In this document: piece by piece, positions 6,340 through 46,212 of the stretch
Layout: every line of letters starts with the position of its first letter
Numbering within the stretch: position 1 is the first letter of the stretch
Assembly (NCBI GenBank): GCA_963715595.1
Contig: OY970255.1
Coordinates: forward strand, 155,796 to 219,795
Reading direction: 5' to 3'
DNA: 64,000 nt
Source: an uncultured Actinomycetota bacterium
Lineage (GTDB): Bacteria > Actinomycetota > Actinomycetes > Actinomycetales > CAWJMD01
Program-made: the position numbers and the translations under genes
Notes under the pieces: model-generated
The model's input: only the letters and a program-made list of their open reading frames with translations
What the model was told of the DNA's origin: nothing
The model's database searches: none

Positions 6340-7880
6340 GTGATCGACCTCGAGGCCGCGCACCGCGAGATCGAGCGACGAGGAGCACCCTCGCGCGAGC
6401 GCCAGTCCTGGGCGACCGGTCTGCCGTTCGTCGGTCGAGGGACCCGACCAGGTCGTCGCGCGCGCCGCCGAGCGGCGCGCCGCCCGCACCGCCCGGGTGC
6501 TGCGCCGGGTGGTCGCCACCGACCTGGTGCTCGCCGCCGCCGTCATGACGGTGACGCCTCGTCGGCCTCCTCGGCGGTGGCGCCGCCGCCGTCCTCGGCC
6601 TGGCCGCCGGCACCGCGTGGGTGGCGCTGCTCGCCCTGCTGCGCGGGTACGACCGCCGCCGCGTCGGCGACGGCCCGGAGGAGTTCCAGTCGCCGTGCTG
6701 CGCGGCGGCCGTCATCGCGGTCGCCGCGTCGGGCCTCGCTCGCCTACCGCCTCGAGCTGTTCCTGCCGCGCCGCGTCGTGCTCGTCGCGATCCCGCTGAT
6801 CGGCCGCGCTGACGCTGATCGGGCGCTACGCCTGGCGCCGGTGGCTGCACACCCGCCGCGCGCCCGGCGTCGACGTCGCCCGCACCCTGGTCGTCGGCGA
6901 CGGCCCGGCCGTGGCCGAGGTCGTCCGCGACCTGCGCCGCGAGCCGTACCACGGCCTCGTCCGTCGTCGGCGCCTGCGTGCCCGCGTACGCGGCTCCGAC
7001 GTCGACGAGACCGCCGGCGCCGCCGATGCTCGGCGTCATCTCCGAGGTGCCGCAGGTCGTGCGTCGACCACGACGATCGACACCGTGATCGTCGTCGGCT
7101 CCCAGCTCACCGGGCAGCCGCTGCGGCGCCTGTCGTGGGCGCTGGAGCACACCGGCGCCGAGCTGATGGTCGCCCCCGGCCTGGTCGAGGTCACCGGCCC
7201 CAACGTCGACCCTGCACCCCGCCGCGGGCCTGTCGCTGCTGCGGGTCGAGCGACCTGCCGCGCGCTCCGGCCGGCTGGCTCGCCAAGTCGGCCCTCGACC
7301 GCGGCCTCGGCGGCTGCTGCTGTTCCTCGCGGCCGCTCCCGGTCATCGGTGTCGCCGCGCTCGCTGGTCCGGGCCACGAGCCCCGGCCCGGCCTTCTACG
7401 CCCAGCAGCGGGTCGGTCGCGACGGCGCCGAGTTCACGATGTGGAAGCTGCGCAGCATGGTGGTCGACGCCGACCAGCTGCGTCGACCGAGCTGGCCGAC
7501 GCAGGACGAGGGCGACGGGCTGCTGTTCAAGATGCGCAGCGACCCGCGGGTCACCGCCGGTGGGCCGGGTGCTGCGCCGGCTCTCGCTCGACGAGCTGCC
7601 GCAGCTGTGGAACGTGGTGACGCGGCGACATGTCGCTCGTCGGCCCGCGTCCGCCGCTGCCGCAGGAGTACGCCCAGTACCACGACGACGGTGCACCGCC
7701 GGCTGCGGGTGCAAGCCCGGCCTCACCGGCCTGTGGCAGGTCAGCGGGCGCTCCGACCTGTCGTGGGAGGAGTCGATCCGGCTCGACCTGCGCTACGTCG
7801 ACAACTGGTCGGCGGCGATGGACCTGCAGATCCTGTGGAAGACGGCCCGCGCCGTCGTCTCGGGTGCCGGCGCCTACTGA
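6340..7880 (+). CDS. exopolysaccharide polyprenyl glycosylphosphotransferase (WbaP/bacterial sugar transferase family); heavily frameshifted
   Basis: The C-terminal catalytic domain reads SPGPAFYAQQRVGRDGAEFTMWKLRSM...DGLLFKMRSDPRVT...LRRLSLDELPQLWNVV...MSLVGPRPPLPQEY...KPGLTGLWQVSGRSDLSWEESIRLDLRYVDNWS. The upstream CoA-binding-like region (TLVVGDGPAVAEVVRDL...IDTVIVVGS) and TM segments are spread over all three frames, with at least 6 shifts. The start is uncertain. Confidence 0.8.
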
Positions 7881-7972
7881 CGGCGTCACGCCAGCACTAC
7901 CGAACGGGCCTGTCCGGGGTCGTCCCCGGGCCGGCCCGTTCGGTCGTCCCGGCGCACGGGTACGGTCCCCGG

Positions 7973-8554
7973 ATGACCCAGGCACCCGTCGACCCTGCGC
8001 CGGGCGCGGGCCGCGCACCGGCACGGACCGGGCTGGGGGCGTTCCTGGTCGCCGGCGGTGTGGTGTGGGCGCTCACGGCGGCCCTGGCGGTGGTGGCCGC
8101 GGTCGTGCTGTCGTCGAGCTCGGACGTGGCGGCGACCTCGACGTTCGGTGCCGGTCAGACGGTGGTGGCTCCGGAGCCGGACGGGGTGCGCGGCCCGCTG
8201 GTCGTGTACGGGCAGGACGTGCCGGTGCGGGGGTCGAGGACGCTCGCGGCCGGGTGCGAGGTCGTCAGCCCGCGCGGCGGCGAGCGGATCGTGACGAGCG
8301 CACGCGGCGCGGACCCGATCACGGTCGACGGGGTCGACCTGGTCCCGCTGGTGCAGACGAGCGGGTGGCGACCGGGTGACTCGGTGACGTGCTCGGGTGA
8401 GGGCGCGTCGGCGCTGGCACCGTTCGCCGCGGTGCCGACGGGTGCGCCCGGGACGGCCCGGGCGGTCGCGGTCGCGCTGGCGGTCCTGGGCGCACTGGGC
8501 GCGGCGGTGTTCCTCGTGGGCGGCGCAGCGGTCCTGCGTCGTCGTCGCAGTTGA
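7973..8554 (+). CDS. hypothetical membrane protein (N- and C-terminal TM helices flanking an extracytoplasmic domain)
   Basis: Intact ORF from the ATG at 7973: MTQAPVDP...GLGAFLVAGGVVWALTAALAVVAAVVL...AVAVALAVLGALGAAVFLVGGAAVLRRRRS*. No recognisable family. Confidence 0.5.
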   Translation: MTQAPVDPAPGAGRAPARTGLGAFLVAGGVVWALTAALAVVAAVVLSSSSDVAATSTFGAGQTVVAPEPDGVRGPLVVYGQDVPVRGSRTLAAGCEVVSPRGGERIVTSARGADPITVDGVDLVPLVQTSGWRPGDSVTCSGEGASALAPFAAVPTGAPGTARAVAVALAVLGALGAAVFLVGGAAVLRRRRS

Positions 8555-8576
8555 CGGCACCGGTGCCCGGACGCGC

Positions 8577-8609
8577 GAGACCCCCGCCGGCAGGGCCGAC
8601 GGGGGTCTC
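8577..8609. terminator. bidirectional hairpin between convergent genes
   Basis: gagacccccg (8577-8586) pairs with cgggggtctc (8600-8609). This is a 10-bp perfect stem with a 13-nt loop, lying between the stops at 8554 (+) and 8628 (-). Confidence 0.55.
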
Positions 8610-8627
8610 TACGAGGAACGGGGTGGG

Positions 8628-8906
8628 TCAGGCGCGGCGGTTGCCCTGGGTGCGCGAGACGCGGTGCAGGAGGATGCCGCCACCGACGAGCGCGGCACCG
8701 ACGCCGGCCCCGAGGCCGAGCTCGGCACCGGTGAAGGCCAGCGCGCGGTTCTCGGTGCGGTCGGCGACCCGGGTCGCCGGGGCCACCGTGCTGCTGGTGG
8801 GCTCGACCGAGGTGGGCGGGTACGTGGCGGCGAGCGCCGGGGCGCCGCCGACGGCGGTGAGGCCGGCCACGAGGGCGGCAGAAGCGAGAACTCGGCGGTA
8901 CTTCAT
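8628..8906 (-). CDS. small secreted sortase substrate (LAFTG cell-wall sorting signal)
   Basis: MKYRRVLASAALVAGLTAVGGAPALA|ATYPPTSVEPTSS...LAFTG-AELGLGAGVGAALVGGGILL-HRVSRTQGNRRA*. This is a signal peptide, a short P/T/S-rich mature region, an LAxTG motif, a hydrophobic helix and a basic tail. An AGGGGG Shine-Dalgarno lies upstream of the ATG. Confidence 0.6.
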   Translation of the reverse strand: MKYRRVLASAALVAGLTAVGGAPALAATYPPTSVEPTSSTVAPATRVADRTENRALAFTGAELGLGAGVGAALVGGGILLHRVSRTQGNRRA

Positions 8907-9037
8907 GGACGAACCCCCTACGCCGCCTTCGCGGCCGTGATGCCTGGAGGACTGGTCCCCGGCACGAGTCTTGGCGCCGGGCGGTTCACCCGACGTGCAA
9001 ACGGTAACAGCATGTAGGTACCCGGCCCCACCGAATC

Positions 9038-9063
9038 GAGCAGGACGGCACCCCGTCCTGCTC
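9038..9063 (-). terminator. hairpin downstream of the DUF4012 gene
   Basis: gagcaggacgg-cacc-ccgtcctgctc is an 11-bp perfect stem with a 4-nt loop. It begins about 84 nt after the stop at 9147. Confidence 0.55.
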
Positions 9064-9146
9064 AGCAGTGCCGGAACGGGTGAACGCACCGTCGTCCCCA
9101 CGGCGGCGAGGTGACCCGATCGGAGGACGGCCGGCGCGCAGGCCCC

Positions 9147-10931
9147 TCAGCCGCAGGTGCGTCCGGCGGCGTCCTGCGCGCCGTCGACCGGCCGCACCAG
9201 CGGCTGCACCTGCACCCGGGGCACGTCCGGGTCGCCGGCCAGGCGGGCGACCAGCGTGGTCGTGGTGCCCGGTGCGAGGTCGACGCTGGTGCGCACCACC
9301 TGCCACCCGCGCAGGGGGTCGACGGCGACGTCCTGGGTGGCGCCGTCGACGGTCAGCCCGGCCAGGCCGCGGGTGGGCGGCAGCAGCAACGACAGCGTCA
9401 CCCGGTGCGAGAAGGGGTCGAGCCCGTCGAGGTGGCTCTGCGCGTAGTCGGGGAGCGTGGGCGGCGGGGCGTAGTCGAGCGACACCTCGACGAGCGGCCC
9501 GTCGTCGCACCGGGCGGCCACGGCGACCCGCAGGTACTGGTCGAGCTTGGACGCGTCGATGTTGGTGAGGTGCAGCCGCACCTGGTCGGTCGCCACGTCG
9601 GCGTCGGGCAGGTGCCCGGCGACGCCGGCGCCGACCAGCGCCTCCTGGACCTGCGGGTCAGCCGACCACAGCTGCACGTGCCGGTCGACCAGCGACCGGC
9701 CGACGGCCTGCCCCACGGCGGGGTCGCCCCAGTCGGCCTCGAGCAGCGAGTCGAAGACGCCGACCATGACGGCGGACAGGTAGGCGCGCCGGGCGGCGTC
9801 GTCGTCGGCGAAGGTGCGGTAGGCGTCGGCCTGGACGACCTGGACGAGGTTCTCGCGGGTCAGGGGCGGGCCGCCCGGCACCTCGACCGAGCCGGTGGCG
9901 CCGAGCACCCGGGCCAGGGCCACGACGTCGATGCCGACCACGCCGTCCGGTGCGGGCCGGCCCTGCGCGGTCCAGACCTCGCTCAGCAGCCCGGCCGCCA
10001 CCGGGAAGTCGGGGACGAGGTTGACGTTCGGGCTGAGCGCGAGGTCCTGGCCGTACAGCGCCAGCACCTCCTCGGGCAGCTCGGGCAGGCGGCCGCGCAA
10101 CGACTCCAGGTCGTCGTTGGCCCCGGTCTCGAGCAGCGACACCGCGCCGCCGTCGACCTCCAGCAGCGCCCAGCTGCCCACGATGCCGCCGGTCGGACGC
10201 GCCTCCGCCAGGTTCTGGGCGGCGAGCAGGTACGAGCGGGGGCCGTCGGCGCCGAGCGCGCCGGGCAGCACGGCGAGCAGGCCGTCGGCGCGCCGCACCT
10301 GGTCGTCGAGCTCGACCAGCGCGGCGACGGCGTCGAGGGTGCGCTGCTCCAGCGGCGGCACCATCGCGGTGGCGTCGACGCCCTCGACGTCGGCGCGCAG
10401 CCGCGCGCTGGTCGCCGCCGCACCGGCCACGACGTCGCCCGCCCCCCGCAGCGCGACCAGGTCGACGGCGCCCGCCGGGGCCTGCTCCTGGGCGGCGAGG
10501 AAGGCGCGGGCGGCGCCGAGGGACGGGACGACGACCTCCGCGGCCGCCGCGTGGGAGGAGGTGGCGAGGGTGCGGACGCCGCGGACGTCGTCGCCGACGA
10601 CCGGCACGAGCGAGGCCACGGCGAACGGGACGCTTCCGGCCGCGCCGTCGGCCCGCTCGAGGTGCTCGGCCGCCTGCTGGGCGCGGGAGTGGGCCAGGTC
10701 GAGGTCGCGCGCCGCCAGGGCGGCGCGGGCGCCGGTGAGCTCCTGCTCGCCGGCCCGTGCCTCGCGCGCCAGGACGTAGGCCTCCCAGCCGCCCCAGACG
10801 CCGAGCACCAGCACCGCCAGCAGCACCGCCTGCAGGCCGCGGCGCACCCAGGTGCGGGTCGCGCCCTCGGCCGGGCGCGTCGCGCTCTCGTCCGGTCGGG
10901 GTGCACCGCCGACGGTGTCGTGCTCCGTCAC
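9147..10931 (-). CDS. DUF4012 domain-containing membrane protein (typical of actinobacterial cell-envelope glycan loci)
   Basis: Intact ORF. It has an N-terminal TM (GLQAVLLAVLVLGVWGGW), a coiled region and the block YLLAAQNLAEARPTGGIVGSWALLEVDGGAVSLLETG, characteristic of DUF4012. GTG at 10931 is chosen as the start; the track ORF extends to 11012. Confidence 0.7.
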   Translation of the reverse strand: MTEHDTVGGAPRPDESATRPAEGATRTWVRRGLQAVLLAVLVLGVWGGWEAYVLAREARAGEQELTGARAALAARDLDLAHSRAQQAAEHLERADGAAGSVPFAVASLVPVVGDDVRGVRTLATSSHAAAAEVVVPSLGAARAFLAAQEQAPAGAVDLVALRGAGDVVAGAAATSARLRADVEGVDATAMVPPLEQRTLDAVAALVELDDQVRRADGLLAVLPGALGADGPRSYLLAAQNLAEARPTGGIVGSWALLEVDGGAVSLLETGANDDLESLRGRLPELPEEVLALYGQDLALSPNVNLVPDFPVAAGLLSEVWTAQGRPAPDGVVGIDVVALARVLGATGSVEVPGGPPLTRENLVQVVQADAYRTFADDDAARRAYLSAVMVGVFDSLLEADWGDPAVGQAVGRSLVDRHVQLWSADPQVQEALVGAGVAGHLPDADVATDQVRLHLTNIDASKLDQYLRVAVAARCDDGPLVEVSLDYAPPPTLPDYAQSHLDGLDPFSHRVTLSLLLPPTRGLAGLTVDGATQDVAVDPLRGWQVVRTSVDLAPGTTTTLVARLAGDPDVPRVQVQPLVRPVDGAQDAAGRTCG

Positions 10932-11142
10932 GGCGATGCCCCCCTGCGTCGTCCGGCGACGGTTGCGCCGGTCGGGCCAGGATAGGTGCCCGTCCGGGCG
11001 ACGATGGAGCAACGGGTCACCCCGACGTCCCCGGGGGGCCTAGCCTGGCAGCGGCGCGCGGCACCGCTGCCCGCGCCAGCGCTCCCGGTGGTCCACTCCC
11101 CGGGGCGCCCGACGAACCCGACGAACGCAGGGAGGGACCCCC

Positions 11143-11955
11143 GTGCGCCCAGACGAGCAGCCCGGACCCGGTGCCGCGACCGACCACGCGAGCGACCACG
11201 CGCTGGCGCGCGAGCTGGCGGCGCGTGCGGGGGAGGAGCTGGTGCGGGTGCGCGCCGAGCTCGAGGCGGCCGGGACCCCCGCGGCCGAGGTCAAGGACCG
11301 TGGCGACGCGGTGTCGCAGGAGCTGCTCGCGCGGCTGCTGGCCGAGCACCGTCCGGGCGACGCCGTGCTGAGCGAGGAGAGCACCGACGACCCCGTCCGG
11401 CTGCAGGCCGACCGGGTCTGGATCATCGACCCGCTCGACGGGACCCGGGAGTTCTCCGAGCCGGGCCGCACCGACTGGGCCGTGCACGTCGCCCTCTGGT
11501 CGCGCGGCGAGCTGGTGGCCGGCGCCGTCGGTCTGCCGGCGGCCGGCCTGGTGCTCGCCACCGACGACCCGCCGCCGGTGCCCCGGCGTCCGCAGGCACG
11601 GCTCCGCCTGGCGGTCAGCCGCTCCCGCCCGCCCGCCTTCGTCGACGAGCTGGCGACGCTGCTCGACGCCGAGCTGGTGCCGATGGGCTCCGCCGGGGTC
11701 AAGGCGGTCTCGGTGCTGCGCGGCGACGCCGACGCCTACGTGCACGCCGGCGGCCAGTACGAGTGGGACAACGCCGCCCCCGCCGCCGTCGCGGCCGCGT
11801 CGGGCCTGCACACCAGCCGCGTCGACGGCTCGCCGCTGCGCTACAACCAGCCCGACCCGAGCCTGCCGGACCTGCTGGTGTGCCGTCCGCAGGACGCGTC
11901 CGTCATCCTGGACGCCGTCCGCAGCATCGCCGACCGAGGGGCCGTCCGCGCATGA
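11143..11955 (+). CDS. cysQ: 3'(2'),5'-bisphosphate nucleotidase (PAP phosphatase)
   Basis: Intact ORF with IMPase-fold motifs LSEES, WIIDPLDGTREF and YEWDNAAP. The stop overlaps the cysD start (ATGA). Confidence 0.8.
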   Translation: MRPDEQPGPGAATDHASDHALARELAARAGEELVRVRAELEAAGTPAAEVKDRGDAVSQELLARLLAEHRPGDAVLSEESTDDPVRLQADRVWIIDPLDGTREFSEPGRTDWAVHVALWSRGELVAGAVGLPAAGLVLATDDPPPVPRRPQARLRLAVSRSRPPAFVDELATLLDAELVPMGSAGVKAVSVLRGDADAYVHAGGQYEWDNAAPAAVAAASGLHTSRVDGSPLRYNQPDPSLPDLLVCRPQDASVILDAVRSIADRGAVRA

Positions 11956-12863
11956 CCGACGTCTCGCAGTACCAGCTCACGCACCTGCAGGCCCTGGAGT
12001 CCGAGGCCGTCTTCGTCTTCCGCGAGGTCGTCTCCGAGCTCGAGAAGCCCGTGCTGCTGTTCTCCGGCGGCAAGGACTCGATCGTGATGCTGCACGTGGC
12101 GCGCAAGGCGTTCCACCCCGCACCCATCCCGTTCCCCGTGCTGCACGTCGACACCGGGCACAACTTCGCCGAGGTGCTCGAGCACCGCGACGCGACCGCC
12201 AGCGCCCTGCGCGTGCAGCTGCACGTCGCCAGCGTCCAGGACGCCATCGACCGCGGCCTCGTGCACGAGCCGCCGGACGGCACGCGCAACCGGATCCAGA
12301 CCCCGGTGCTGCTCGACGCGCTCGAGAAGCACCAGTTCACAGCGATCTTCGGCGGCGCGCGCCGCGACGAGGACAAGGCCCGCGCCAAGGAGCGGATGTT
12401 CTCGTTCCGCGACGAGTTCGGCCAGTGGGACCCGAAGAACCAGCGTCCCGAGCTGTGGAACCTCTACAACGGGCACATCCACGTCGGCGAGAGCATCCGG
12501 GTGTTCCCGCTGTCGAACTGGACCGAGCTCGACATCTGGCGGTACATCCAGCAGGAGCAGATCGACCTGCCGAGCATCTACTTCGCCCACGAGCGCGAGG
12601 TGTTCGACCGCGGCGGCATGCTCTACGGGGTGCACGAGGTCTGCCGCCCGCGCCCGAACGAGACCGTCTTCACCGAGACCGTGCGGTACCGCACCGTCGG
12701 TGACGCGAGCCTCACCGCGGCCGTGCGCTCCGACGCCGACACGATCGAGAAGATCATCGACGAGATCGCCACCACCCGCATCACCGAGCGCGGGCAGACC
12801 CGCGGCGACGACAAGTTCAGCGAGGCCTCCATGGAGGACCGCAAGCGCGAGGGGTACTTCTGA
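11952..12863 (+). CDS. cysD: sulfate adenylyltransferase subunit 2
   Basis: Intact ORF: LLFSGGKDSIVMLHVA (PP-loop), FGGARRDEDKARAKERMFSFRD, YFAHEREV, VGDASLT. Full-length CysD. Confidence 0.95.
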   Translation: MTDVSQYQLTHLQALESEAVFVFREVVSELEKPVLLFSGGKDSIVMLHVARKAFHPAPIPFPVLHVDTGHNFAEVLEHRDATASALRVQLHVASVQDAIDRGLVHEPPDGTRNRIQTPVLLDALEKHQFTAIFGGARRDEDKARAKERMFSFRDEFGQWDPKNQRPELWNLYNGHIHVGESIRVFPLSNWTELDIWRYIQQEQIDLPSIYFAHEREVFDRGGMLYGVHEVCRPRPNETVFTETVRYRTVGDASLTAAVRSDADTIEKIIDEIATTRITERGQTRGDDKFSEASMEDRKREGYF

Positions 12864-14116
12864 TGGACCTTCTGAGGTTCGCCACGGCCGGCTCGGTCGA
12901 CGACGGCAAGAGCACGCTCATCGGCCGGCTCCTCTACGACACCAAGAGCGTCCTGCAGGACCAGCTCGAGGCCGTCGAGCGGGTCAGCCGCGAGCGCGGC
13001 GACGAGTACGTCAACCTGGCGCTGCTCACCGACGGGCTGCGCGCCGAGCGCGAGCAGGGCATCACCATCGACGTCGCCTACCGGTACTTCTCCACGGCGC
13101 GGCGCAACTTCATCATCGCCGACACCCCCGGGCACATCCAGTACACCCGCAACATGGTGACCGGGGCCTCGACCGCCGACCTCGCGCTCGTCCTGGTCGA
13201 CGCCCGCAAGGGCATGCTCGAGCAGAGCCGCCGGCACGCGTTCCTGGCCACCCTGCTGCAGGTGCCGCACCTGGTGCTGTGCGTCAACAAGATGGACCTG
13301 GTCGGGTACGACCAGCAGGTCTTCGAGCAGATCCGCAGCGAGTTCCGCGCGTTCGCCGCCAAGCTGCAGGTGCCCGACCTGGTCGTCATCCCGGTCTCGG
13401 CGCTCGCGGGCGACAACGTCGTCACGCGCTCGGAGAACATGCCCTGGTACGAGGGCTCGAGCCTGCTGCACCACCTCGAGAACGTGCACGTCGCCAGCGA
13501 CCGCAACCTGATCGACGCGCGGCTGCCGGTGCAGTGCGTGATCCGGCCGCAGTCGGGCACGCACCTGGACTACCGCGGCTACGCGGGCCAGGTCGCGGGC
13601 GGGGTGCTGAAGCCCGGTGACGAGGTGATGGTGCTGCCGTCCGGCTTCACCTCGCGCATCGCGGCGATCGACACCGCCGACGGCCCGGTCGACGAGGCCT
13701 TCCCGCCGATGTCGGTCACCGTCCGGCTCGAGGACGAGCTCGACGTCTCGCGCGGCGACGTGATCTGCCGTCCGCACAACGCGCCGACGCCGACCCAGGA
13801 CGTCGACGCGATGCTGTGCTGGATGGACGAGCAGAGCACGCTCGAGCCGCGCCGCAAGTACCTGGTCAAGCACACCACGCGCACCGCGCGGGCGATGGTC
13901 AAGGACCTGCAGTACGTGCTCGACGTCAACACGCTGCACCGCGACGAGAAGGCGACGTCGTTGGGGCTCAACGAGATCGGCCGGGTGCAGCTGCGCACGA
14001 CGCAGCCGCTGCTGGTCGACGAGTACCGCCGCAACCGCACCACGGGGGCCTTCATCCTCATCGACGAGGCCACCCACCGCACCGTCGCGGCGGGCATGAT
14101 CACCTCGACGGCGTGA
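12863..14116 (+). CDS. cysN: sulfate adenylyltransferase subunit 1 (GTPase), without a fused APS kinase domain
   Basis: Intact ORF: FATAGSVDDGKSTLIGRLL (G1), DTPGH (G3), NKMD (G4). 417 aa. The start overlaps the cysD stop (TGATG). Confidence 0.95.
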   Translation: MDLLRFATAGSVDDGKSTLIGRLLYDTKSVLQDQLEAVERVSRERGDEYVNLALLTDGLRAEREQGITIDVAYRYFSTARRNFIIADTPGHIQYTRNMVTGASTADLALVLVDARKGMLEQSRRHAFLATLLQVPHLVLCVNKMDLVGYDQQVFEQIRSEFRAFAAKLQVPDLVVIPVSALAGDNVVTRSENMPWYEGSSLLHHLENVHVASDRNLIDARLPVQCVIRPQSGTHLDYRGYAGQVAGGVLKPGDEVMVLPSGFTSRIAAIDTADGPVDEAFPPMSVTVRLEDELDVSRGDVICRPHNAPTPTQDVDAMLCWMDEQSTLEPRRKYLVKHTTRTARAMVKDLQYVLDVNTLHRDEKATSLGLNEIGRVQLRTTQPLLVDEYRRNRTTGAFILIDEATHRTVAAGMITSTA

Positions 14117-29846: not shown

Positions 29847-29896
29847 GACGACGACGCCCCGTGGGTCCCGATCGGGAACCACGGGGCGTCGTCGTC
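29847..29896 (+). terminator. long hairpin after the propeller gene
   Basis: gacgacgacgccccgtgg (29847-29864) pairs with ccacggggcgtcgtcgtc (29879-29896), an 18-bp perfect stem. The loop contains the palindrome tcccgatcggga. Confidence 0.6.
29867..29876. promoter_or_regulatory. CCCGATCGGG palindrome, site 1
   Basis: Perfect 10-nt palindrome (12 nt as tcccgatcggga) in non-coding DNA, 160 nt upstream of the GH-FN3 start codon. See findings. Confidence 0.3.
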
Positions 29897-33656: not shown

Positions 33657-33685
33657 AACGTAGACAGTTCACCCGATCGGGTCAA
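33657..33685 (-). promoter_or_regulatory. sigma-70 (HrdB-like) promoter with overlapping palindromic operator candidate
   Basis: On the minus strand: TTGACC (33685-33680), a 17-nt spacer, then TACGTT (33662-33657, fits actinobacterial TANNNT). This is about 58 nt upstream of the GTG at 33599. The spacer and -35 contain the perfect palindrome acccgatcgggt (33671-33682). Confidence 0.5.
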
Positions 33686-34823: not shown

Positions 34824-36276
34824 GTCGCCTCCTCCTCGGTGCCGGTGCGAGCGGGGACGGGGTCCTGCTCGGGGGTGGACGGGACCCGGCGAGCGGGCGG
34901 ACGTGCCCGACGACGCCGACGGCGAGCCACAGCAGGGCGCCGTAGACCGACTTGTAGGTGCTGGTGAACAGCAGGGCGACGGTGAGCGCGGTGAGCACCG
35001 CGGCCGCCCCGGGGTCGGCGAGGCCCCGCCGGGCCAGCAGCACGGCCGAGCCGGCGGCCACGACGGTCGCGACCAGCAGCAGCCCGCCCGCGGGCAGCCC
35101 GAGGGCGACGACCGACTCGAACACGCCGCTGTCGACGCTCTGCAGGGCCGGCTGCAACCCGGCCTCGAGCTGGGTGGCGAGCCCGGTGGCGCCCAGGCCG
35201 CGGCCCCACGGGTCGACGACGACCTCGGTGAAGAGCTGGGCCTGCAGGTCGAGCCGCTCCTGCAGGCTGTAGTCCTGGGCGCCCGCCTCGAGCGACGCGG
35301 TCACCCGCTCGGTGACGGAGCCCAGCACGGGGCCGCCGAACAGCAGCAGCGCGGCCGTGCCCGGCACCGCGACGGCCAGCAGCCGGGTGAGGCGCACCCG
35401 CCCGGCGAGCACCAGGACGGCGAGGGCGACCAGGTGGCAGATCCAGGCTGCACGCACCAGCGACAGGCCCAGGGCGAGGTAGCCGAGCACGAGCAGGGGC
35501 ACCTGCACGACCAGCCGGGTGCGCAGCGTGCTCGCCAGGTGCAGCAGCAGCAGGGCCGACAGCGTGTGCGCGTAGGGGCCGGCGGTGTTGAGGGTGCCGA
35601 AGACCCGCACCTCCTGGGCCTCGGCCCGCCCGACCGAGTTGATCCCGGACTGCTCGATCCACAGCGCGTCCCACGGCGGGAGCACGAGGAACTGCAGCAG
35701 GCCGTACCCGGCCAGGACCGGGACGGCCCACCGGGCCAGCCGCGGCAGGACGCGCGCGACGGCCGACCCGTCGTGGGTGAGCACGACGTACCCGAGCACG
35801 AACGGCGCGACCAGCTCGACGGCCCCCGCGGCCACCGGCAGCAGGCCCCACTGCGGCAGGCCGACGACCGACCCGTAGAGCACCGCGAGCAGCAGCGCGC
35901 CCGCCATCGCCGCCGCGGTCCGGGTGGCGCGCGAGCCGCGCCCGCGCAGCAGCACGGCCGCCGCCGCGAGCGAGCCCGCCACCGGGGCCAGGAGCACGGG
36001 GCTGACCTCGTGGTAGGTGCTCAGCCAGTCGACGACGCGGCGGACGAACGGCGAGAGCAGCCACAGCCACAGCACCAGCGCGACGACGTCGGTGGTGCGC
36101 GAGCGCAGCGCCAGCAGCAAGGCGTAGACCCCGGCGGCCGCCGGCGCGGCGTACCCGGCCAGCCGCGCGTCCAGGACGGCGATCGCCACCGTGGCGGCGC
36201 AGATGATCAGGGCGCCGAGGGTGCCTCGCCACAGCGACGGCTCCTCCTCGGCGCTCAGCTCGCCGGGCTGCACCAC
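34799..36276 (-). CDS. O-antigen ligase / Wzy-like polymerase family membrane protein; probable frameshift in the C-terminal tail
   Basis: About 10-12 TM segments with a large loop GINSVGRAEAQEVRVFGTLNTAGPYAHTL (Wzy_C-like). The GTG GTG start at 36276/36273 overlaps the upstream sulfotransferase stop. As given, the frame runs on into the GT4 gene; a 1-nt shift near 34880 gives the stop at 34799. Confidence 0.65.
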
Positions 36277-37196
36277 AGGCCGACCAGGTCGCGACCCACG
36301 AGCCGGCCGAGCGCGTCGATCTCGGGCCGCATCTGCGCGAGCAGGCGCGCGCGCAGCTCGGGGTCCATCCGCGCGCCGGCGACCGGGGCCGCGTTCAGGC
36401 GGTAGAGCAGCTTCCAGGCGCCGTCGCGCCACACGGCGGTGCGCAGGCGGGCCGGCACGGCCCGGCGGACCAGCGCGCGTCCGGGCGGGTCGCGCAGCAC
36501 GTCACGCAGCACCGCGCTGCGCGAGCGGCTGCGCTGCTTCTCGACCGTCGTGCCCGGCCGGTGGGTGTCGTCGAGATCGAGGAAGCGCAGCAGGGCGGCG
36601 TGGGTGCCCTCCGGGTCGTCGCGCAGGTCGTCGAAGACCACGACGTGGGTGCGCTCGGGCCCGAACACGTCCAGGAAGCGGGCGACCTGCGGGCTCAGGG
36701 TCGCGGCGTCGACGTAGCCCACGCCGGGCGGGAACGGCGCGCGGGGCGGGCGCCGGCCCGGCTCGCCGTCGCGCTCGAGCGCCTCGGCGAAGTCCTCGAG
36801 GTCCTCCTCGCCGGTGAACAGCCGCATGCCGTGCAGCGAGAACATCATGTCGACGGGGTTGCGGACCGCGACCACCACGCGCGCCTGCGGCGAGAAGGAC
36901 GCGATCTCCTGCGCGGCGGTCGCGGAGCGCAGGTACCAGGCCGACGCCTCCAGCAGCCGCGCCTCCTCGCGCGCGCCCGAGAACAGGTCGAGGTACTCCT
37001 GCTCGGAGCGGTCCGACAGCGGCAGGTCGCGGCCGAAGAAGTTGGGCTCCTTCAGCGGGCAGGCGAACACGTCGGGGTGCGCGGCGAGCCGGGAGTACAG
37101 CGTGGTCGTGCCGCACTTGGCCGCGCCGACGACGAAGGTGTCGGGTCGGCGCGCTGCGGCGGCCCGGACGGCCCGCCCCGAGGTCACGGGCTCCAC
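36255..37196 (-). CDS. sulfotransferase 3 (class A)
   Basis: Intact from the GTG at 37196: DTFVVGAAKCGTTTLY (PSB loop), RVVVAVRNPVDMMFSLH (PB motif). Confidence 0.8.
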   Translation of the reverse strand: MEPVTSGRAVRAAAARRPDTFVVGAAKCGTTTLYSRLAAHPDVFACPLKEPNFFGRDLPLSDRSEQEYLDLFSGAREEARLLEASAWYLRSATAAQEIASFSPQARVVVAVRNPVDMMFSLHGMRLFTGEEDLEDFAEALERDGEPGRRPPRAPFPPGVGYVDAATLSPQVARFLDVFGPERTHVVVFDDLRDDPEGTHAALLRFLDLDDTHRPGTTVEKQRSRSRSAVLRDVLRDPPGRALVRRAVPARLRTAVWRDGAWKLLYRLNAAPVAGARMDPELRARLLAQMRPEIDALGRLVGRDLVGLWCSPAS

Positions 37197-37280
37197 CCCT
37201 CGAGGATAGGTGGCCCGCGACCGGCGTGGGCCCCGGTTGGGCGTGCTGCCCGGGCGGGCCCGGACGTCGGCACGCCTCGC

Positions 37281-37367
37281 TGTCACGCTGCGTGAGGCGT
37301 TGGTCCAGTCGTAGCAACCGTCCGTCACCGGCTACGGTCCGTGCGGTCTGGACCCGATCCAGGATCG
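37281..37367 (+). promoter_or_regulatory. conserved upstream leader, copy 2
   Basis: See 29949-30035. It contains acccgatcc-a-ggatcgg, which abuts the GTG start. Confidence 0.45.
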
Positions 37368-39725
37368 GTGTCCACCGCCACTCCCGTCTCCCGCCGCCGT
37401 CGTCTGCTCGGTCTCGCCCTCGCGACCGCGCTCGTCGGACCGCTGGTCACCCCCCTGGTCCTGGGCGGAACCGCAGCACCCTCCGCCGCCGCGACGCTGA
37501 CCCTGCGCCAGCCGATGCCCGCCGACGCGGTCGTCGACATGGTCGGCATCAACGTGCACACCGCGAGCCGTGAGCACTACGGCGACAAGGCCCGCGTCAC
37601 CGCGGCGCTGCGCGAGCTGGGTGTGCGGCACGTGCGCGACCGCGTGTACACCAATCGCCCGGACCAGTACGACCGGCTGCGGGCGCTCGGCGCGGAGGGC
37701 ATCGGCCTGAACGTCATCGCCGGCGACCCGACCCTGGCCGGCGGGACGCCCGAGGCGATCGTGCAGACCGCCGTCCGCGAGCTGCCGGGCATGGTCGAGA
37801 GCTACGAGGGCGCCAACGAGTGGAACCTCAAGCGCCGCCCGAACTGGGCCGCCGAGCTGCGCGCGCACCAGACCCGCCTCTACGGGGCGGTGCGCGCCAA
37901 CCCGGTGCACTCCCGCGTGCCCGTGATGGCGCCGGCGCTCGGCCAGCGCGAGGGCCGCGAGGAGCTCGGCTCCCTCGCCGGCATCGCCGACCTGGGCAAC
38001 AACCACCTCTACATGGGCGGCCGCGAGCCGTCGTGGCTGGTCGACCAGGAGCTGAGCCGCGAGCGCGCCCTGAAGGTCCCGAACAAGCAGGTCGTGGTGA
38101 CCGAGGCCGGCTACCACGACGCGATGGTCGACCCGACCACCCACTTCCCGACCCCGCAGGACGTCTCGGCCGACTACCTGCCGCGCTGGGTGATGGAGTA
38201 CGCCAAGCGCGACGCCCTGACCCACCAGGTCTACCTCTACCAGCTGATGGACGAGGGCACGAACAACGCCGACCGCGAGGACAAGTTCGGCCTCGTGCGA
38301 CCGGACTTCACCCGCAAGCCCGGCTTCACCGCGCTGAAGAACACCCTGGCCCTGTTCGAGGACCCGGGCGGCTACCAGCCCCAGCCCACCCCGCTCGCGC
38401 TCGGCGTCACCTCCACCGCCACCGACGTGCAGACCCTGGTCACCCAGCGCCGCGACGGCAGCTACGTCCTGGCCGTCTGGCGACGCACCAGCTCCTGGCA
38501 GCAGAAGGACGAGGTGCGCCTGGCGGTCCCCGCGGTGCCGGTCACCCTCGACCTGGCCACCGCGATGGACGCCGCCGTGCACACCCCCACCACCTCCGCC
38601 ACGCCCCGCTCGACCGCGACCCGCACCACCCGGGTCAACCTCTCGGTCGGCAACGGCCTGCAGGTCGTCAAGCTCACCGCCCCGGTCAGCACGCCGCCGC
38701 CGACCACGCCGCCGCCGACCACGCCGCCGCCGACCACGCCGCCGCCGACCACGCCGCCGCCGACCACGCCGCCGCCGACCACGCCGCCGCCGACCACGCC
38801 GCCGCCGACGTCCCCGACGACGCCGCCGACGACGTCCCCGACGACCCCCTCGACGCCCGCCCCGTCCCCGTCCCCCTCCCCGACGGGTGACGTCGTCGCG
38901 CCGAGCTCGCGGCTGGCGCTGTCGGCCACCGCGACCGGCAGCGGCGACCTGGTGGCGGTGGGCGCCAAGGGCGTCCCGAACCACCTGGAGTGGTCCGCCG
39001 AGGAGGGCCTCGGCCGGCCGCGCGCCCTCAGCGGCCAGACCGACTACGCACCGGCCCTGACCCGGGCCCCCGACGGCAGCCTCGACGCCCTCGTCGTCGG
39101 CACCAACGGCGCCCTGTACTCCAGCCGCCAGGCCGCGGGCTCGTCGTCCTGGAGCCCGTGGACGCGCGTCGGCGGCGCCCTGGTCGGGCGCCCGGCGGCG
39201 ACCACCTGGCCCGACGGCACCCTGCAGGTCTTCGCGGCCGGCACCGACCGCGCCGTGTGGCAGACCTGGCGCACCCCGCAGGGCCGGTGGGCCGGCTGGC
39301 ACAAGACCGGTGGCCTGGTGGCCGCGGGCACCGGCGTCTCGGTGTCGTCGGCCCCCGACCGGACGCTGACCGTGGCCGTCCACGGCGCCGACCACGCGGT
39401 CTGGACGACCGGCTGGCGTCCGGGCGGCGGCTGGCAGCGGGGCTGGACCTCCCTCGGCGGCGCCCTGCTCGGTGACCCGGCCGTGGCGGTCGACGGCGCG
39501 AGCGGCCGCGCGGTCGTGGTGGTGCGCGGCACCGACCACGTCGCCTACGCCCGCGACGTCAGCGGACCCGGCGCCGCCGGGTGGACCCGCCTCGGCGGCG
39601 TCCTCGGCGGGTCGCCCGCGGTCTCGACCGTGCCCGGTGCCGGCGTGGACGTCGTGGTGGTCGCCCCCGGCGACCGGCTGCTGCACCTGACCCGCACCCG
39701 CGGCTCCTGGTCGGCCTGGAGCTGA
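37368..39725 (+). CDS. secreted clan-GH-A-like hydrolase + (PPPTT)n linker + PLL/DUF346-like 5-bladed lectin-type beta-propeller
   Basis: Intact ORF. The catalytic domain is almost identical to 30036. A Pro/Thr linker follows, then repeats with W-x2-W-x2-[LV]GG spacing (WSPWTRVGG, WAGWHKTGG, WQRGWTSLGG, AGWTRLGG, SWSAWS*). The start is placed at the GTG at 37368 by homology; the track ORF begins at 37341. Confidence 0.7.
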   Translation: MSTATPVSRRRRLLGLALATALVGPLVTPLVLGGTAAPSAAATLTLRQPMPADAVVDMVGINVHTASREHYGDKARVTAALRELGVRHVRDRVYTNRPDQYDRLRALGAEGIGLNVIAGDPTLAGGTPEAIVQTAVRELPGMVESYEGANEWNLKRRPNWAAELRAHQTRLYGAVRANPVHSRVPVMAPALGQREGREELGSLAGIADLGNNHLYMGGREPSWLVDQELSRERALKVPNKQVVVTEAGYHDAMVDPTTHFPTPQDVSADYLPRWVMEYAKRDALTHQVYLYQLMDEGTNNADREDKFGLVRPDFTRKPGFTALKNTLALFEDPGGYQPQPTPLALGVTSTATDVQTLVTQRRDGSYVLAVWRRTSSWQQKDEVRLAVPAVPVTLDLATAMDAAVHTPTTSATPRSTATRTTRVNLSVGNGLQVVKLTAPVSTPPPTTPPPTTPPPTTPPPTTPPPTTPPPTTPPPTTPPPTSPTTPPTTSPTTPSTPAPSPSPSPTGDVVAPSSRLALSATATGSGDLVAVGAKGVPNHLEWSAEEGLGRPRALSGQTDYAPALTRAPDGSLDALVVGTNGALYSSRQAAGSSSWSPWTRVGGALVGRPAATTWPDGTLQVFAAGTDRAVWQTWRTPQGRWAGWHKTGGLVAAGTGVSVSSAPDRTLTVAVHGADHAVWTTGWRPGGGWQRGWTSLGGALLGDPAVAVDGASGRAVVVVRGTDHVAYARDVSGPGAAGWTRLGGVLGGSPAVSTVPGAGVDVVVVAPGDRLLHLTRTRGSWSAWS
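37497..38687 (+). repeat. near-identical 1.19-kb duplication, copy 2
   Basis: See 30165-31355. Confidence 0.9.
38691..38810 (+). repeat. perfect 15-bp tandem repeat x8 encoding (TPPPT)8
   Basis: acgccgccgccgacc is repeated 8 times head to tail; only the final base of unit 8 differs. Degenerate P/T/S codons continue to about 38886. Confidence 0.95.
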
Positions 39726-39755
39726 CCCGCACGACCCGCACACCCGCTCGACCAC

Positions 39756-39788
39756 CCGACCGGCCCGCCCACCAGGCGGGCCGGTCGG
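39756..39788. terminator. bidirectional hairpin between convergent genes
   Basis: ccgaccggcccgcc (39756-39769), loop cacca, ggcgggccggtcgg (39775-39788). This is a 14-bp perfect stem. Confidence 0.6.
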
Positions 39789-39828
39789 CTGCGTCGGGGG
39801 GACGCCGCCCACGCGCGGGACGGGCGCC

Positions 39829-40797
39829 TCAGCGCGAGGTGTCGTCGGCCTTCTCGGCGGTGGCGTCCGGCTGGGCGGCGCGCTGGGCGCGCCGCTCGGC
39901 CGCGAAGGTGAGCGGCAGGCCGTGCCGGCGCCGCACCAGCGCCCAGACGAGGGGGCCGGCGACGAACGCGGCGAGCAGGGCCACGCCGAGCTCGACGTTG
40001 CCGACCCCGAGCAGCTTCAGCGCCGAGGCGAGCAGCACGTAGACCAGGGCCCAGCGCACCAGCCGCCCGTTCACCCGGGACGACACGGCCGCGCCGACCA
40101 GCACGCCGGGGATGCCGCCGATCAGGATGCCGGCGGCGATGTCGAGCTGGAAGTCGCCGAGCAGCAGGTGGCCGAGGGCGGCCGCGGCCACCAGGGGCAC
40201 CGCCTGGGTGAGGTCGGTGCCGACGAGCTTGTTCATCTTCAGCATCGGGTACAGCGCGAGCAGGGCGACGATGATGAGCGAGCCGGACCCGACCGAGGTG
40301 ACGCCGACGACCAGGCCGCCGACGGCGCCGACGAGCACGGTCGGCAGGCGGCGCACCTGCACCCGCGCCGGGACGTCCTCGTCGCTGACGGCCGTGCCGT
40401 TCACCCGCTCGCGCAGCCGCACGTAGGCGCGCGCGGCCAGCCCGGCGACCGCGAGCAGCAGGGCGACGCCGAGGGCGATCTGGATCAGGTCCTGCACGTC
40501 CTGGCCGTCGCCGAGCGAGCGCGCGAGCAGCACCCCGAGGAAGGCGGACGGCACCGACCCGACGCACAGCCAGCCGACGAGCGGCAGGTCGACGGTGCCG
40601 CGGCGCAGGTGCACGCCCGCCCCGAACGGCTTCATCACCGCCGTGGCGACCAGGTCGCTGCTCACGGCCGCCAGCGGGGGGATGCCGAAGAAGATGACCA
40701 GCATGGGCGTCATCAGGGCGCCACCGCCCATGCCGGTGAGGCCGATGACGATGCCCACGCCGAACGCGCTGAGCACGAGGAGCAGCTCGGTGCCCAC
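39829..40797 (-). CDS. TauE/SafE-family anion permease
   Basis: Intact ORF: MGTELLLVLSAFGVGIVIGLTGMGGGALMTPMLV...VGVTSVGSGSLIIVALL..., about 8 TM. It starts 9 nt downstream of the cysC stop, so it is probably in the same operon. Confidence 0.8.
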   Translation of the reverse strand: MGTELLLVLSAFGVGIVIGLTGMGGGALMTPMLVIFFGIPPLAAVSSDLVATAVMKPFGAGVHLRRGTVDLPLVGWLCVGSVPSAFLGVLLARSLGDGQDVQDLIQIALGVALLLAVAGLAARAYVRLRERVNGTAVSDEDVPARVQVRRLPTVLVGAVGGLVVGVTSVGSGSLIIVALLALYPMLKMNKLVGTDLTQAVPLVAAAALGHLLLGDFQLDIAAGILIGGIPGVLVGAAVSSRVNGRLVRWALVYVLLASALKLLGVGNVELGVALLAAFVAGPLVWALVRRRHGLPLTFAAERRAQRAAQPDATAEKADDTSR

Positions 40798-40806
40798 GTC
40801 GACCTC

Positions 40807-42109
40807 CTAGAGGGCGCCGGCCGCGCGCACCGCGTCGAGCACGGCGGCGGCGGCCTCGTCGGTGGACGTCGTGGAGGTGTCCACGACGAGGTCGGCGTCG
40901 ACGGGCGCCTCGTAGGGGTCGTCGATGCCGGTGAAGCCGGTGATCTCGCCGCGGCGCGCGGCCGCGTACAGGCCCTTGCGGTCGCGCTGCTCGCACACCT
41001 CGAGCGGGGTGCTGACGTGCACGAGGACGAACCGGGCCCCGACCTGCTCGGCCATGGCGCGCACGTCGTCGCGCACCGAGGCGTAGGGCGCGATGGGGGC
41101 TGCCACGGCCAGGCCGCCGTGCCGGGCCACCTCGGCCGCGACGTACCCGATGCGGCGCACGTTCAGGTCGCGGTCCTCGCGGGAGAAGCCGAGACCGGCC
41201 GAGAGCAGGCGGCGCACGTCGTCGCCGTCGAGCAGCGTGACGGTGCGTCCGGCCGAGCGCAGCAGGTCGGTGACCGCGCGGGCCACGGTCGACTTGCCCG
41301 AGCCGGACAGGCCGCTGAGCAGCACGACGGCGCCGGGACGCTGCACCGGCGCGGCGTCGTCCTCACCGGGCTCGGGGTCGGGCAGCGCGAGCAGCTCCAC
41401 GCCGGTCGCGGTCAGGGCCGTCGCGGTGGGGGCCGTCGCGGTGGGGGCGTCGGCGCCGGCCGCGGTCACCAGGGCGGCCGCCTGCGCGCCGTGCCCGCGC
41501 GCGAGCACCAGCTCGCGCACCGCCGCGGGGACGGCGCAGGTGGCCGCGGGGGCGGGCAGCGGGACGGCCCGCACGTCCTCGGACGCGGGCCCGGCCAGCC
41601 GCAGCACGGCCGGCACCAGCCGCTCGGGCGGCTCGGCGCCGGGACGCCCGGAGCCGGTGAGCACCAGCCAGGTCAGGGGCAGGCCGCGCTCGCGGGCCCG
41701 CGCGCGCAGCGCCTGCACCTGGTTCGGGGCCGGGAGGGTGTCGACCACCGCGACCAGGCGGGGCGCGTCGTCGCCCGGACCGCGGACGAGGTCGTGGAAC
41801 GCGTGCCGGCCGAAGGGGCGCAGCCAGTCGAGCCGGCCGTGCACCGAGCAGCCGGCCGGGTCGGCCGCCGCCGGCGCCAGGACGTGCAGCACCGCCAGCA
41901 CGGTGCCCTCGGGATCGGCCAGCGCGACGCGGTCGCCGGGTCCGACGGCGTCGGGCGCGAGCGGCAGCCGCTGGCGGTGCGCGCCGGGCGGGCCGTCGTC
42001 GAGCGCGTCGAGCCTCGGCGGACAGGTCGAGGGAGGCGAGGGCGAGGTCGTCCAGGCACGGGCCGTCGAGGACGACGTGGGACGAGGGCGCCGCGGGGTC
42101 GGCGGTCAT
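40807..42109 (-). CDS. cysC: APS kinase with N-terminal degenerate ATP-sulfurylase-like domain; 1 frameshift
   Basis: The C-terminal domain is VVLLSGLSGSGKSTVA...LLDGDDVRRLLSAGLGFSREDRDLNVRRIGYVAAE...PYEAP (CysC). The N-terminal roughly 200 aa (HVVLDGPCLDDLALASLDL...GDRVALADPEGTVLAVLHV...) resemble the PUA-like and early catalytic part of Sat but lack the QTRNP and HRAH motifs. The frame shifts near 42012. Confidence 0.8.
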
Positions 42110-42114
42110 GGTGG

Positions 42115-42432
42115 TCAGTGCCGGGTCCGGCGTGCCGACACCGACATCGCGGTGCCACCGCCGACGAGCAGCAGCCCGACGCCGGCCCAGCCGGCCGCCT
42201 GCACACCGGTGCGGGGCAGCTGCAGGCCGAGCACGTCGACGTGGGAGTTGACCGTCACGCGGGGGCCGGTGCGCGGGGCGTCCTGCTCGGTGACGCTGCC
42301 GACGGACGGGACGGGGGTCGACGGCGGGTAGGTCGCGGCGGCGGCGGGCGTCGCGGCGGCGGCGAGGGCGCCGGCCAGCACGCACGCGGCAGCGAGACCG
42401 CGCAGCCTGCGTACCGCACCCACCACGACCAC
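42115..42432 (-). CDS. small secreted sortase substrate (LPRTG), paralog of 8628-8906
   Basis: It occupies the last ~105 codons of the long shadow ORF 42115-45981. VVVVGAVRRLRGLAAACVLAGALAAAATPAAA|ATYPPSTPVPS...LQLPRTG-VQAAGWAGVGLLLVGGGTAM-SVSARRTRH*. A GGGGAGGGG Shine-Dalgarno lies upstream of the GTG at 42432. The stop is 5 nt before the cysC start. Confidence 0.55.
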   Translation of the reverse strand: MVVVGAVRRLRGLAAACVLAGALAAAATPAAAATYPPSTPVPSVGSVTEQDAPRTGPRVTVNSHVDVLGLQLPRTGVQAAGWAGVGLLLVGGGTAMSVSARRTRH

Positions 42433-42543
42433 TGCCCCTCCCCGTGGGTCCCACCCGGACCCGTCCGGCACCCAGCGTAGGGGCCGTCCACCCCCGGCGT
42501 CGCCCGTTCCGCCCAGCGCGGCGGGGCGGCGGGCGCCGCGTAC

Positions 42544-42553
42544 CCCGATCGGG
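42544..42553. promoter_or_regulatory. CCCGATCGGG palindrome, site 3
   Basis: ccccgatcgggt lies in the divergent intergenic region between the LPRTG-cysC-TauE operon (start 42432) and mfd (start 42598). Confidence 0.3.
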
Positions 42554-42597
42554 TGCGGCGGACCACCCGTCCGCGGGGACCTACCCTGGAGCACGAC

Positions 42598-46212
<3,615 letters not shown>

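Follow-up and report, generated by a model that had tools for sequence, protein, structure and literature searches.

The window analysed here, a 64,000-nt stretch of DNA from an uncultured Actinomycetota bacterium, contains on its minus strand a 105-codon open reading frame (P0001) that lies between the divergent gene mfd and a cysC-like gene, itself followed by a gene for an anion permease (Table 1). P0001 lies within a shadow ORF of 1288 aa that runs antisense to mfd; its start is a GTG at 42432, and two more in-frame GTGs are found at 42426 and 42423. The DNA is 75.5% GC, and in the P0001 frame GC content reaches 0.95–1.00 at third and 0.45–0.65 at second codon positions, which is the pattern of real genes in this DNA and favors the minus strand over the co-phased plus-strand frame. 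By inspection, the leader of the predicted protein is of the Sec type, with a basic n-region (RRLR), a hydrophobic core of approximately 17 residues and, ahead of ATYPP, the cleavage motif A-A-A. The mature product is rich in P, T and S, begins with ATYPPSTPVPS and ends in an LPRTG sorting signal, a hydrophobic segment and a basic tail. These parts had all been named in the first-pass annotation of the locus; each of them is present, with a mature part of 43 residues in place of the approximately 45 claimed.

Table 1. Positions of the genes and features discussed, in window coordinates.
Feature	Position	Strand	Details
Mini sortase substrate gene P0001	42115..42432	-	105 aa; translation, GC3 frame plot, orthologs P0002/P0003/P0007, dN/dS
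Predicted signal peptide of P0001	42337-42432	-	cleavage site between AAA and ATYPP
Predicted mature anchored peptide of P0001	42208-42336	-	43 residues, A33 to T75
YPP motif of P0001	42322-42330	-
LPRTG of P0001	42205-42219	-
Hydrophobic segment of P0001	42133-42204	-	24 residues
Basic tail of P0001	42118-42132	-	RRTRH
Stop codon of P0001	42115-42117	-
Ribosome-binding site GGAGG	42437..42441	-	4 nt before GTG 42432, 10 nt before GTG 42426
Intergenic region shared with divergent mfd	42433..42597	.	165 nt; DNA alignments
cysC-like gene, second in presumed operon	40807..42109	-	PF01583 6e-57; TIGR00455 188 bits; PDB APS-kinase matches
TauE/SafE-family anion permease gene, third in presumed operon	39829..40797	-	PF01925 3.8e-41
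Paralog P0006	8628..8906	-	92 aa; signal peptide, ATYPPTSVEPT..., LAFTG, hydrophobic helix, basic tail
DUF4012 gene P0158	9147..10931	-	594 aa; PF13196
cysQ-like gene (Inositol_P)	11044-11955	+
cysD	~12048-12719	+
cysN	12704-14116	+

Searches with general domain models recovered little from P0001. Pfam gave no match, and the NCBIfam matches were all below threshold, consisting of a spurious one to PEP-CTERM PepA and one to the LPXTG model TIGR01167 (14.1 bits against a cut-off of 15.9; E 0.055). An internal APRTG in the mature part was considered as a second sorting motif and dismissed because it is not conserved in the orthologs described below.

Conservation of P0001 and its linkage to the cysC-like gene

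We identified three metagenomic orthologs of P0001, namely P0002 (97% identity), P0003 (85%, over the mature part) and P0007 (62%). In codon alignments, these orthologs differ from P0001 only by substitutions (dN/dS 0.13–0.36) and by in-frame indels, all of them multiples of three, and the Sec signal peptide is kept. The conserved blocks are ATYPP[S/A]TPVPS, VNSH[V/L]DVLG[L/V]QLPRTG and the anchor, with a variable middle; LPRTG, the hydrophobic segment and the charged tail are identical or conservatively replaced in all three orthologs. On the DNA level, the ortholog on contig L016 presents a homologous GAGGAGG ahead of an ATG. The earlier description of an ORF inside a long shadow ORF thus held, as the ORF translates as described, shows coding-type GC3 and has orthologs under purifying selection.

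That P0001 is a chance open frame in DNA of 75.5% GC, or the remnant of a gene, is scarcely credible. Long shadow ORFs are common in high-GC DNA, P0001 itself lies inside one, and its relatives are labelled "hypothetical protein" in public records; against this stand the frame-specific GC3, a dN/dS well below 1, indels confined to in-frame ones, conservation of the start region and its ribosome-binding site, a sorting signal with all three of its parts and hundreds of homologs that match it in length, and the conservation data already refute the chance-frame reading. Judged from its sequence, P0001 is very probably an expressed-type, selected gene, the product of which would be exported by Sec, cut after AAA and anchored by a sortase, leaving a 43-residue wall peptide. 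Because LPRTG, a hydrophobic helix and a basic tail stand at its C-terminus, the class E sortase of this genome should cleave P0001 and link it to peptidoglycan.

The gene order around P0001 (i.e., divergent mfd, mini gene, cysC-like gene) is the same on all three ortholog contigs (L017, L016 and L112). The mini stop codon precedes the cysC-like start by 5 nt in L017 and L112, and in L016 the start is called approximately 40 nt downstream. In the window, 5 nt separate the P0001 stop codon from the cysC-like ATG at 42109 and 9 nt separate the cysC-like stop at 40807 from the TauE start at 40797, both in agreement with the spacing reported in the first-pass annotation; from these gaps, P0001 is probably co-transcribed with the cysC-like gene and TauE. 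The cysC-like product consists of a canonical APS kinase behind an N-terminal domain of approximately 250 aa, which is recognized by neither Pfam nor NCBIfam. Compared to L017 and L016, the cysC-like gene of the window carries one extra base at approximately 42013-42014 (minus strand GAGGCTC versus GACCTC), so that the frame from the ATG does not run through and the gene splits into two frames, both of which keep coding GC3. The source genome is a single contig that is 79.7% "complete", and this low completeness is probably due to indels; on this ground, the extra base is read as an error of the assembly and is probably not a sign of gene decay.

Across the order, 43 of 151 genomes have the cysC-like gene, in many cases with TauE adjoining, and in four cases it diverges from mfd. 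No LPXTG-type ORF and no tblastn match to the mini protein was found at 29 other cysC-like loci of the order, which indicates that the mini gene entered an older mfd<>cysC-TauE arrangement as a lineage-specific insertion; the ancestral spacer of this arrangement is too short to hold the mini ORF. From these comparisons, P0001 is very probably a lineage-specific second copy of its family, placed between mfd and an ancestral cysC-like/TauE pair. As to conservation in relatives, which had been put forward as a check on the locus, the ORF and its linkage to cysC are kept in four lineages and the linkage is confined to this one clade, being absent from the 29 other loci. Two small proteins found elsewhere in the order (L101:1456-1962(-) in G005 and L102:1438-1800(+) in G040) carry a Tat-like RRxAL signal and are encoded directly upstream of mfd, beside a PqqD-like gene; small sortase substrates seem to recur in the region upstream of mfd.

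Three blocks of the spacer shared with mfd are common to the four lineages: CCCGATCGGG (42544-42553), GGGCGGAxCGGGCGACGCC and CCTACGCTGGGTGC. The CCTACGCTGGGTGC block is a candidate -10 region that could possibly serve either mfd or the mini gene. Three copies of the palindrome CCCGATCGGG are found in the window (29867-29876, 33672-33681 and 42544-42553), as compared to 0.15 expected occurrences; the spacer copy is kept in L017 and L016 and reads CCCGAACGGG, with one base different, in L112. This palindrome may represent a putative operator for genes of the island. A scan of 39600-42700 for consensus sigma-70 promoters and terminators found none, an expected outcome in 75% GC DNA, and an Rfam search over 42000-42700 gave no match to an RNA family.

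A family of mini sortase substrates beside DUF4012

A profile built from five such proteins recovered 502 cluster representatives at E ≤ 1e-3 among 1.8 billion proteins, nearly all of them 85–125 aa long (median approximately 100 aa). P0001 matches this profile with 85.3 bits (E 9e-24) over positions 3–94 of 97, and it shares the family's length, full-length profile match, signal peptide, YPP motif, P/T/S linker and L[PA]xTG. Residues Y35, P37, L72, T75 and G76 are invariant in an alignment of 35 sequences. Among the best 45 of the 502 representatives, YPP is present in 35, LPxTG in 25 and LAxTG in 15, and the median anchored peptide is approximately 41 residues long; the invariance of YPP is partly circular, and hence inflated, because the sequences were gathered with a profile that bears the motif. 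The conservation of ATYPP proposed in the first-pass annotation was confirmed in the orthologs, and YPP is near-invariant across this wider family. One member with a name is a "hypothetical protein" of Angustibacter speluncae, and most members have none. Taken by sequence, the mini proteins are an undescribed, uncharacterized but widespread actinobacterial family; what is new here is the placement of a family copy in a PAPS-supply operon, together with the evidence, given below, against a Tyr-sulfation reading.

The window also contains a paralog, P0006, directly downstream of a gene encoding a DUF4012 protein (P0158) and convergent with a gene for a priming glycosyl-phosphate transferase. To establish where the family is usually encoded, PF13196 and the family profile were run on 150–151 genomes of the order. 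Of the 14 genuine full-length members recovered, 12 have a DUF4012 domain at a distance of less than 2 kb (G001, G010, G096, G017, G029, G051, G071, G089, G106, G052, G013 and G150), and these represent six GTDB families; G001 and G029 carry the same DUF4012-then-mini-L[PA]xTG pair. Partial family matches in G102, G138, G076 and G058 also adjoin DUF4012. The profile matches in G005 and G040 were excluded as family members (Tat-like signal; no YPP; LPRTG or LAYTG) and are left out of the count of 14. P0001 itself is off the usual address, with mfd and the cysC-like gene as its neighbors and DUF4012 31 kb away.

On metagenomic contigs L113, L114, L116 and L118, the DUF4012-mini pair is found beside priming glycosyltransferases. 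In L118, DUF4012-mini-Bac_transf is flanked on one side by cysQ-cysD-cysN and sulfotransferases, an arrangement identical to that of the window; in L116/L117, the pair adjoins a cluster encoding UDP-glucose dehydrogenase, an epimerase and GT4, with no sulfate genes within 10 kb. The DUF4012-mini module is independent of sulfation. In both L118 and L116/L117, the module keeps a constant place at a chromosomal edge, close to pth, rplY, TauE, Rrf2, prs and glmU, and the polysaccharide genes that adjoin it vary, L118 having a sulfated version and L116 a non-sulfated one (Ugd, epimerases, GT4). In other genera (L048, L050, L053, L055, L056, L061 and L067), the gene after DUF4012 encodes an Ig-like protein of 180–230 aa with LPXTG or an LPxTG variant, and the slot is therefore not specific to minimal acceptor peptides. 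Convergent with P0006 in the window is a 193-aa ORF (7973-8554(+)) with an N-terminal membrane helix, a domain of approximately 120 aa, and AVPTGAPG followed by a hydrophobic helix and RRRRS; its product resembles a sorting-signal protein of a variant kind, the third at the DUF4012 locus, and the priming transferase gene upstream of it (6911 onward) appears to be frameshifted into this ORF.

The three papers in the literature that mention DUF4012 give no function for the domain. We modeled P0158 with AlphaFold2 (31 homologs; mean pLDDT 89.9), and the model presents an N-terminal membrane helix, approximately 200 residues of long helical hairpins, a core at approximately 229–437 that resembles LCP proteins, and a C-terminal beta-sandwich at approximately 446–594. 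Foldseek matched the model with probability 1.00 to the LCP entries 3pe5, 3okz, 8qty, 6uf3, 3tep and 2xxq, and VIA-align superposed residues ~229–437 on approximately 25 LCP structures with Z 8–12 and an rmsd of 3.7–4.5 Å over 160–180 residues, including Z 9.6 for the Actinomyces oris LcpA structure 5v8c; the DUF4012 core is thus LCP-like by predicted fold. The beta-sandwich resembles carbohydrate-binding or dextranase C-domains (Z 7–8). Within DUF4012, R245 is invariant and R381 nearly so. On the outer face, LCP enzymes transfer glycopolymers from undecaprenyl pyrophosphate to acceptors, and they attach such polymers to the wall. The source genome has its canonical LCP genes at 2.54 and 3.61 Mb, a long way from the window. 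Complex prediction for P0158 (24–594) and the mature peptide (31–78) gave scores of 0.12, 0.50 and 0.00 against a mark of 0.32.

Sortases, sulfate supply and comparable systems

Four PF04203 matches in the source genome represent one class E sortase (NF033747, 202.6 bits; cut-off 160) and three of class F, the genes for the latter being clustered within 18 kb (G000 C1:1052815-1070658), far from the window. The cysQ-like, cysD and cysN genes (11044..14116) diverge from the DUF4012 gene and would, as judged by their sequences, provide the island with APS and with PAP recycling. A search of the source genome for a Sat-type ATP sulfurylase (PF01747) gave no match, and APS must therefore come from CysDN. 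The sulfotransferase gene nearest to P0001 lies at 36255-37331, outside the P0001 operon, which contains none; the best PDB matches of its product are a bacterial sulfotransferase and heparan-sulfate 3-O- and N-sulfotransferases, suggesting a carbohydrate-type enzyme.

In Actinomyces oris, the sortase substrate GspA receives a glycan polymer from LcpA and is then anchored to the wall by SrtA (PMC6381275). GspA-LcpA-SrtA may be the closest functional analogue of the P0001 system, as both combine an actinobacterial sortase substrate, an LCP-fold enzyme and a housekeeping (class E-type) sortase, here predicted from genes and fold. However, GspA is a protein of approximately 25 kDa, as compared to approximately 43 residues for processed P0001; LcpA is a canonical PF03816 LCP protein, whereas DUF4012 is LCP-like by predicted fold; and the GspA gene is linked to an LCP gene, whereas P0001 is found beside PAPS-synthesis genes and its paralog P0006 beside DUF4012. 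The Streptomyces chaplins ChpA-C (PMC5148588) are likewise small and secreted, end in an L[AP]xTG signal followed by a hydrophobic helix and a basic tail, and are encoded in genomes with a class E sortase, but they contain a hydrophobic, amyloid-forming chaplin domain, whereas the YPP family has only a P/T/S-rich linker and is encoded in the context of polysaccharide clusters. In Bifidobacterium longum 105-A, the DUF4012 gene BL105A_0406 adjoins a priming glycosyl-phosphate transferase gene in an exopolysaccharide cluster (PMC5412050), an arrangement comparable to window positions 6911-10931. The description of that locus (PMC5412050) names neither an LPXTG partner nor a function for DUF4012, whereas the window has a mini substrate gene after DUF4012 and a second copy elsewhere in the island.

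Possible roles of the anchored peptide

We tentatively propose, with somewhat less than even confidence, that the P0001 peptide is a sortase-anchored carrier or stem for the sulfated polysaccharide of the island. One class E sortase, the minimal architecture of the mini proteins and an LCP-like partner in polysaccharide clusters make a route from polymer to peptide to wall the most economical reading, and since the family is normally encoded in polysaccharide clusters, a wall anchor for a sulfated polymer is more likely than a sulfated peptide. Under this proposal, a lipid-linked polymer sulfated with PAPS would reach the outer face, where the LCP-like DUF4012 protein would move it onto the mini peptide, the acceptor site probably being the invariant YPP[S/T] N-terminus; the sortase would then fix the glycopeptide to the wall, as in the LcpA/GspA/SrtA pathway of Actinomyces oris. 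The copy ahead of the APS kinase and permease genes would couple the supply of the anchor to that of the sulfate donor. We infer polymer transfer, the acceptor residue and co-transcription from predicted fold, gene linkage and precedent. That the peptide anchors the sulfated glycan had been raised in the first-pass annotation as one option, and it gains indirectly from the tie of the family to DUF4012 in polysaccharide clusters and from the LCP-like model of DUF4012; the P0001 copy, lying 31 kb from DUF4012, does not share in that tie. It is also conceivable that DUF4012 could join the polymer directly to peptidoglycan, in which case the mini protein would have another role. A more specific version of the carrier proposal, which we regard as unlikely, is a widespread "protein-stem" mode of capsule anchoring in which DUF4012 would link the polymer through a phosphate to the Tyr of YPP (or to a neighboring Ser/Thr), the class E sortase would couple the peptide of approximately 40 residues, and the stem gene would have been duplicated into the PAPS-supply operon.

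Possible, though on the doubtful side, is a wall-anchored peptide that carries no glycan and acts as a short hydrophilic surface spacer, modulates the housekeeping sortase or serves as its decoy, or partners DUF4012, with the copy upstream of cysC due to a neutral duplication or insertion. The linkage of the mini gene to cysC is limited to one clade and could therefore mark a neutral insertion site, the ancestral spacer being too short for the ORF; longer Ig-like LPXTG proteins fill the post-DUF4012 slot in other genera, and no modification enzyme adjoins P0001, all of which is consistent with such a role. It is opposed by purifying selection and by a mini-cysC junction preserved across four lineages, down to 62% identity, as well as by the repeated and strong co-location of the family with polysaccharide genes; in addition, a low-complexity peptide of 43 residues has little capacity for a fold-dependent function. 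Modification of the peptide by a general O-glycosylation system independent of the island (i.e., Pmt-type O-mannosylation of the P/T/S-rich N-terminus) appears decidedly unlikely. In Actinobacteria, Pmt typically acts on P/T/S-rich stretches that directly follow a Sec signal peptide, and the mature N-terminus of P0001 would fit, but a six-frame search of the whole genome (79.7% "complete") found no PF02366 (PMT) match.

Very unlikely, finally, is the reading by which the peptide itself is sulfated, either on the Tyr at mature position 3, in the manner of RaxX, or on Ser/Thr, with PAPS from the co-transcribed kinase. RaxX of Xanthomonas has a GG-type leader, leaves the cell through a peptidase-containing ABC exporter, is released and is sulfated by RaxST, a dedicated tyrosyl sulfotransferase encoded by an adjacent gene. 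P0001 resembles RaxX/RaxST in being a short secreted peptide with an important Tyr, encoded near sulfate-activation or sulfotransferase genes, and the co-operonic APS kinase gene, the many sulfotransferases of the island and the invariance of the Tyr would all suit sulfation. However, P0001 has a Sec leader (not a GG-leader with a peptidase-transporter) and a predicted wall anchor; its neighbors are mfd, the cysC-like gene and TauE, with no peptidase-containing exporter and no dedicated tyrosyl sulfotransferase among them. PAPS-dependent sulfotransferases act in the cytoplasm, before export, and the context of the Tyr is rich in PP and ST, not acidic. In family f20, none of seven genomes has an APS-kinase match at 1e-20, and five of the seven carry full-length, DUF4012-linked members with the Tyr, which is also conserved beside the non-sulfated cluster of L116. 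The Tyr is thus a family-wide trait, present where there is no APS-kinase match, and the argument for its sulfation, which the first-pass annotation had drawn by analogy with RaxX, loses its basis; the match of the nearest sulfotransferase to heparan-sulfate-type carbohydrate enzymes also speaks against a sulfated peptide.

If the peptide is only a bare wall decoration, the finding is that of an ordinary small LPXTG protein. To our knowledge, little is understood of the way in which capsules and exopolysaccharides are fastened to the cell in Actinobacteria other than the mycolate group, and the mini family with its LCP-like partner would offer a concrete attachment route, from polymer to peptide to wall. 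The P0001 copy, which links the family to sulfate activation, may be useful for studies of sulfated polysaccharides in bacteria, and with one Tyr and a few Ser/Thr it represents a small and easily mutated target.
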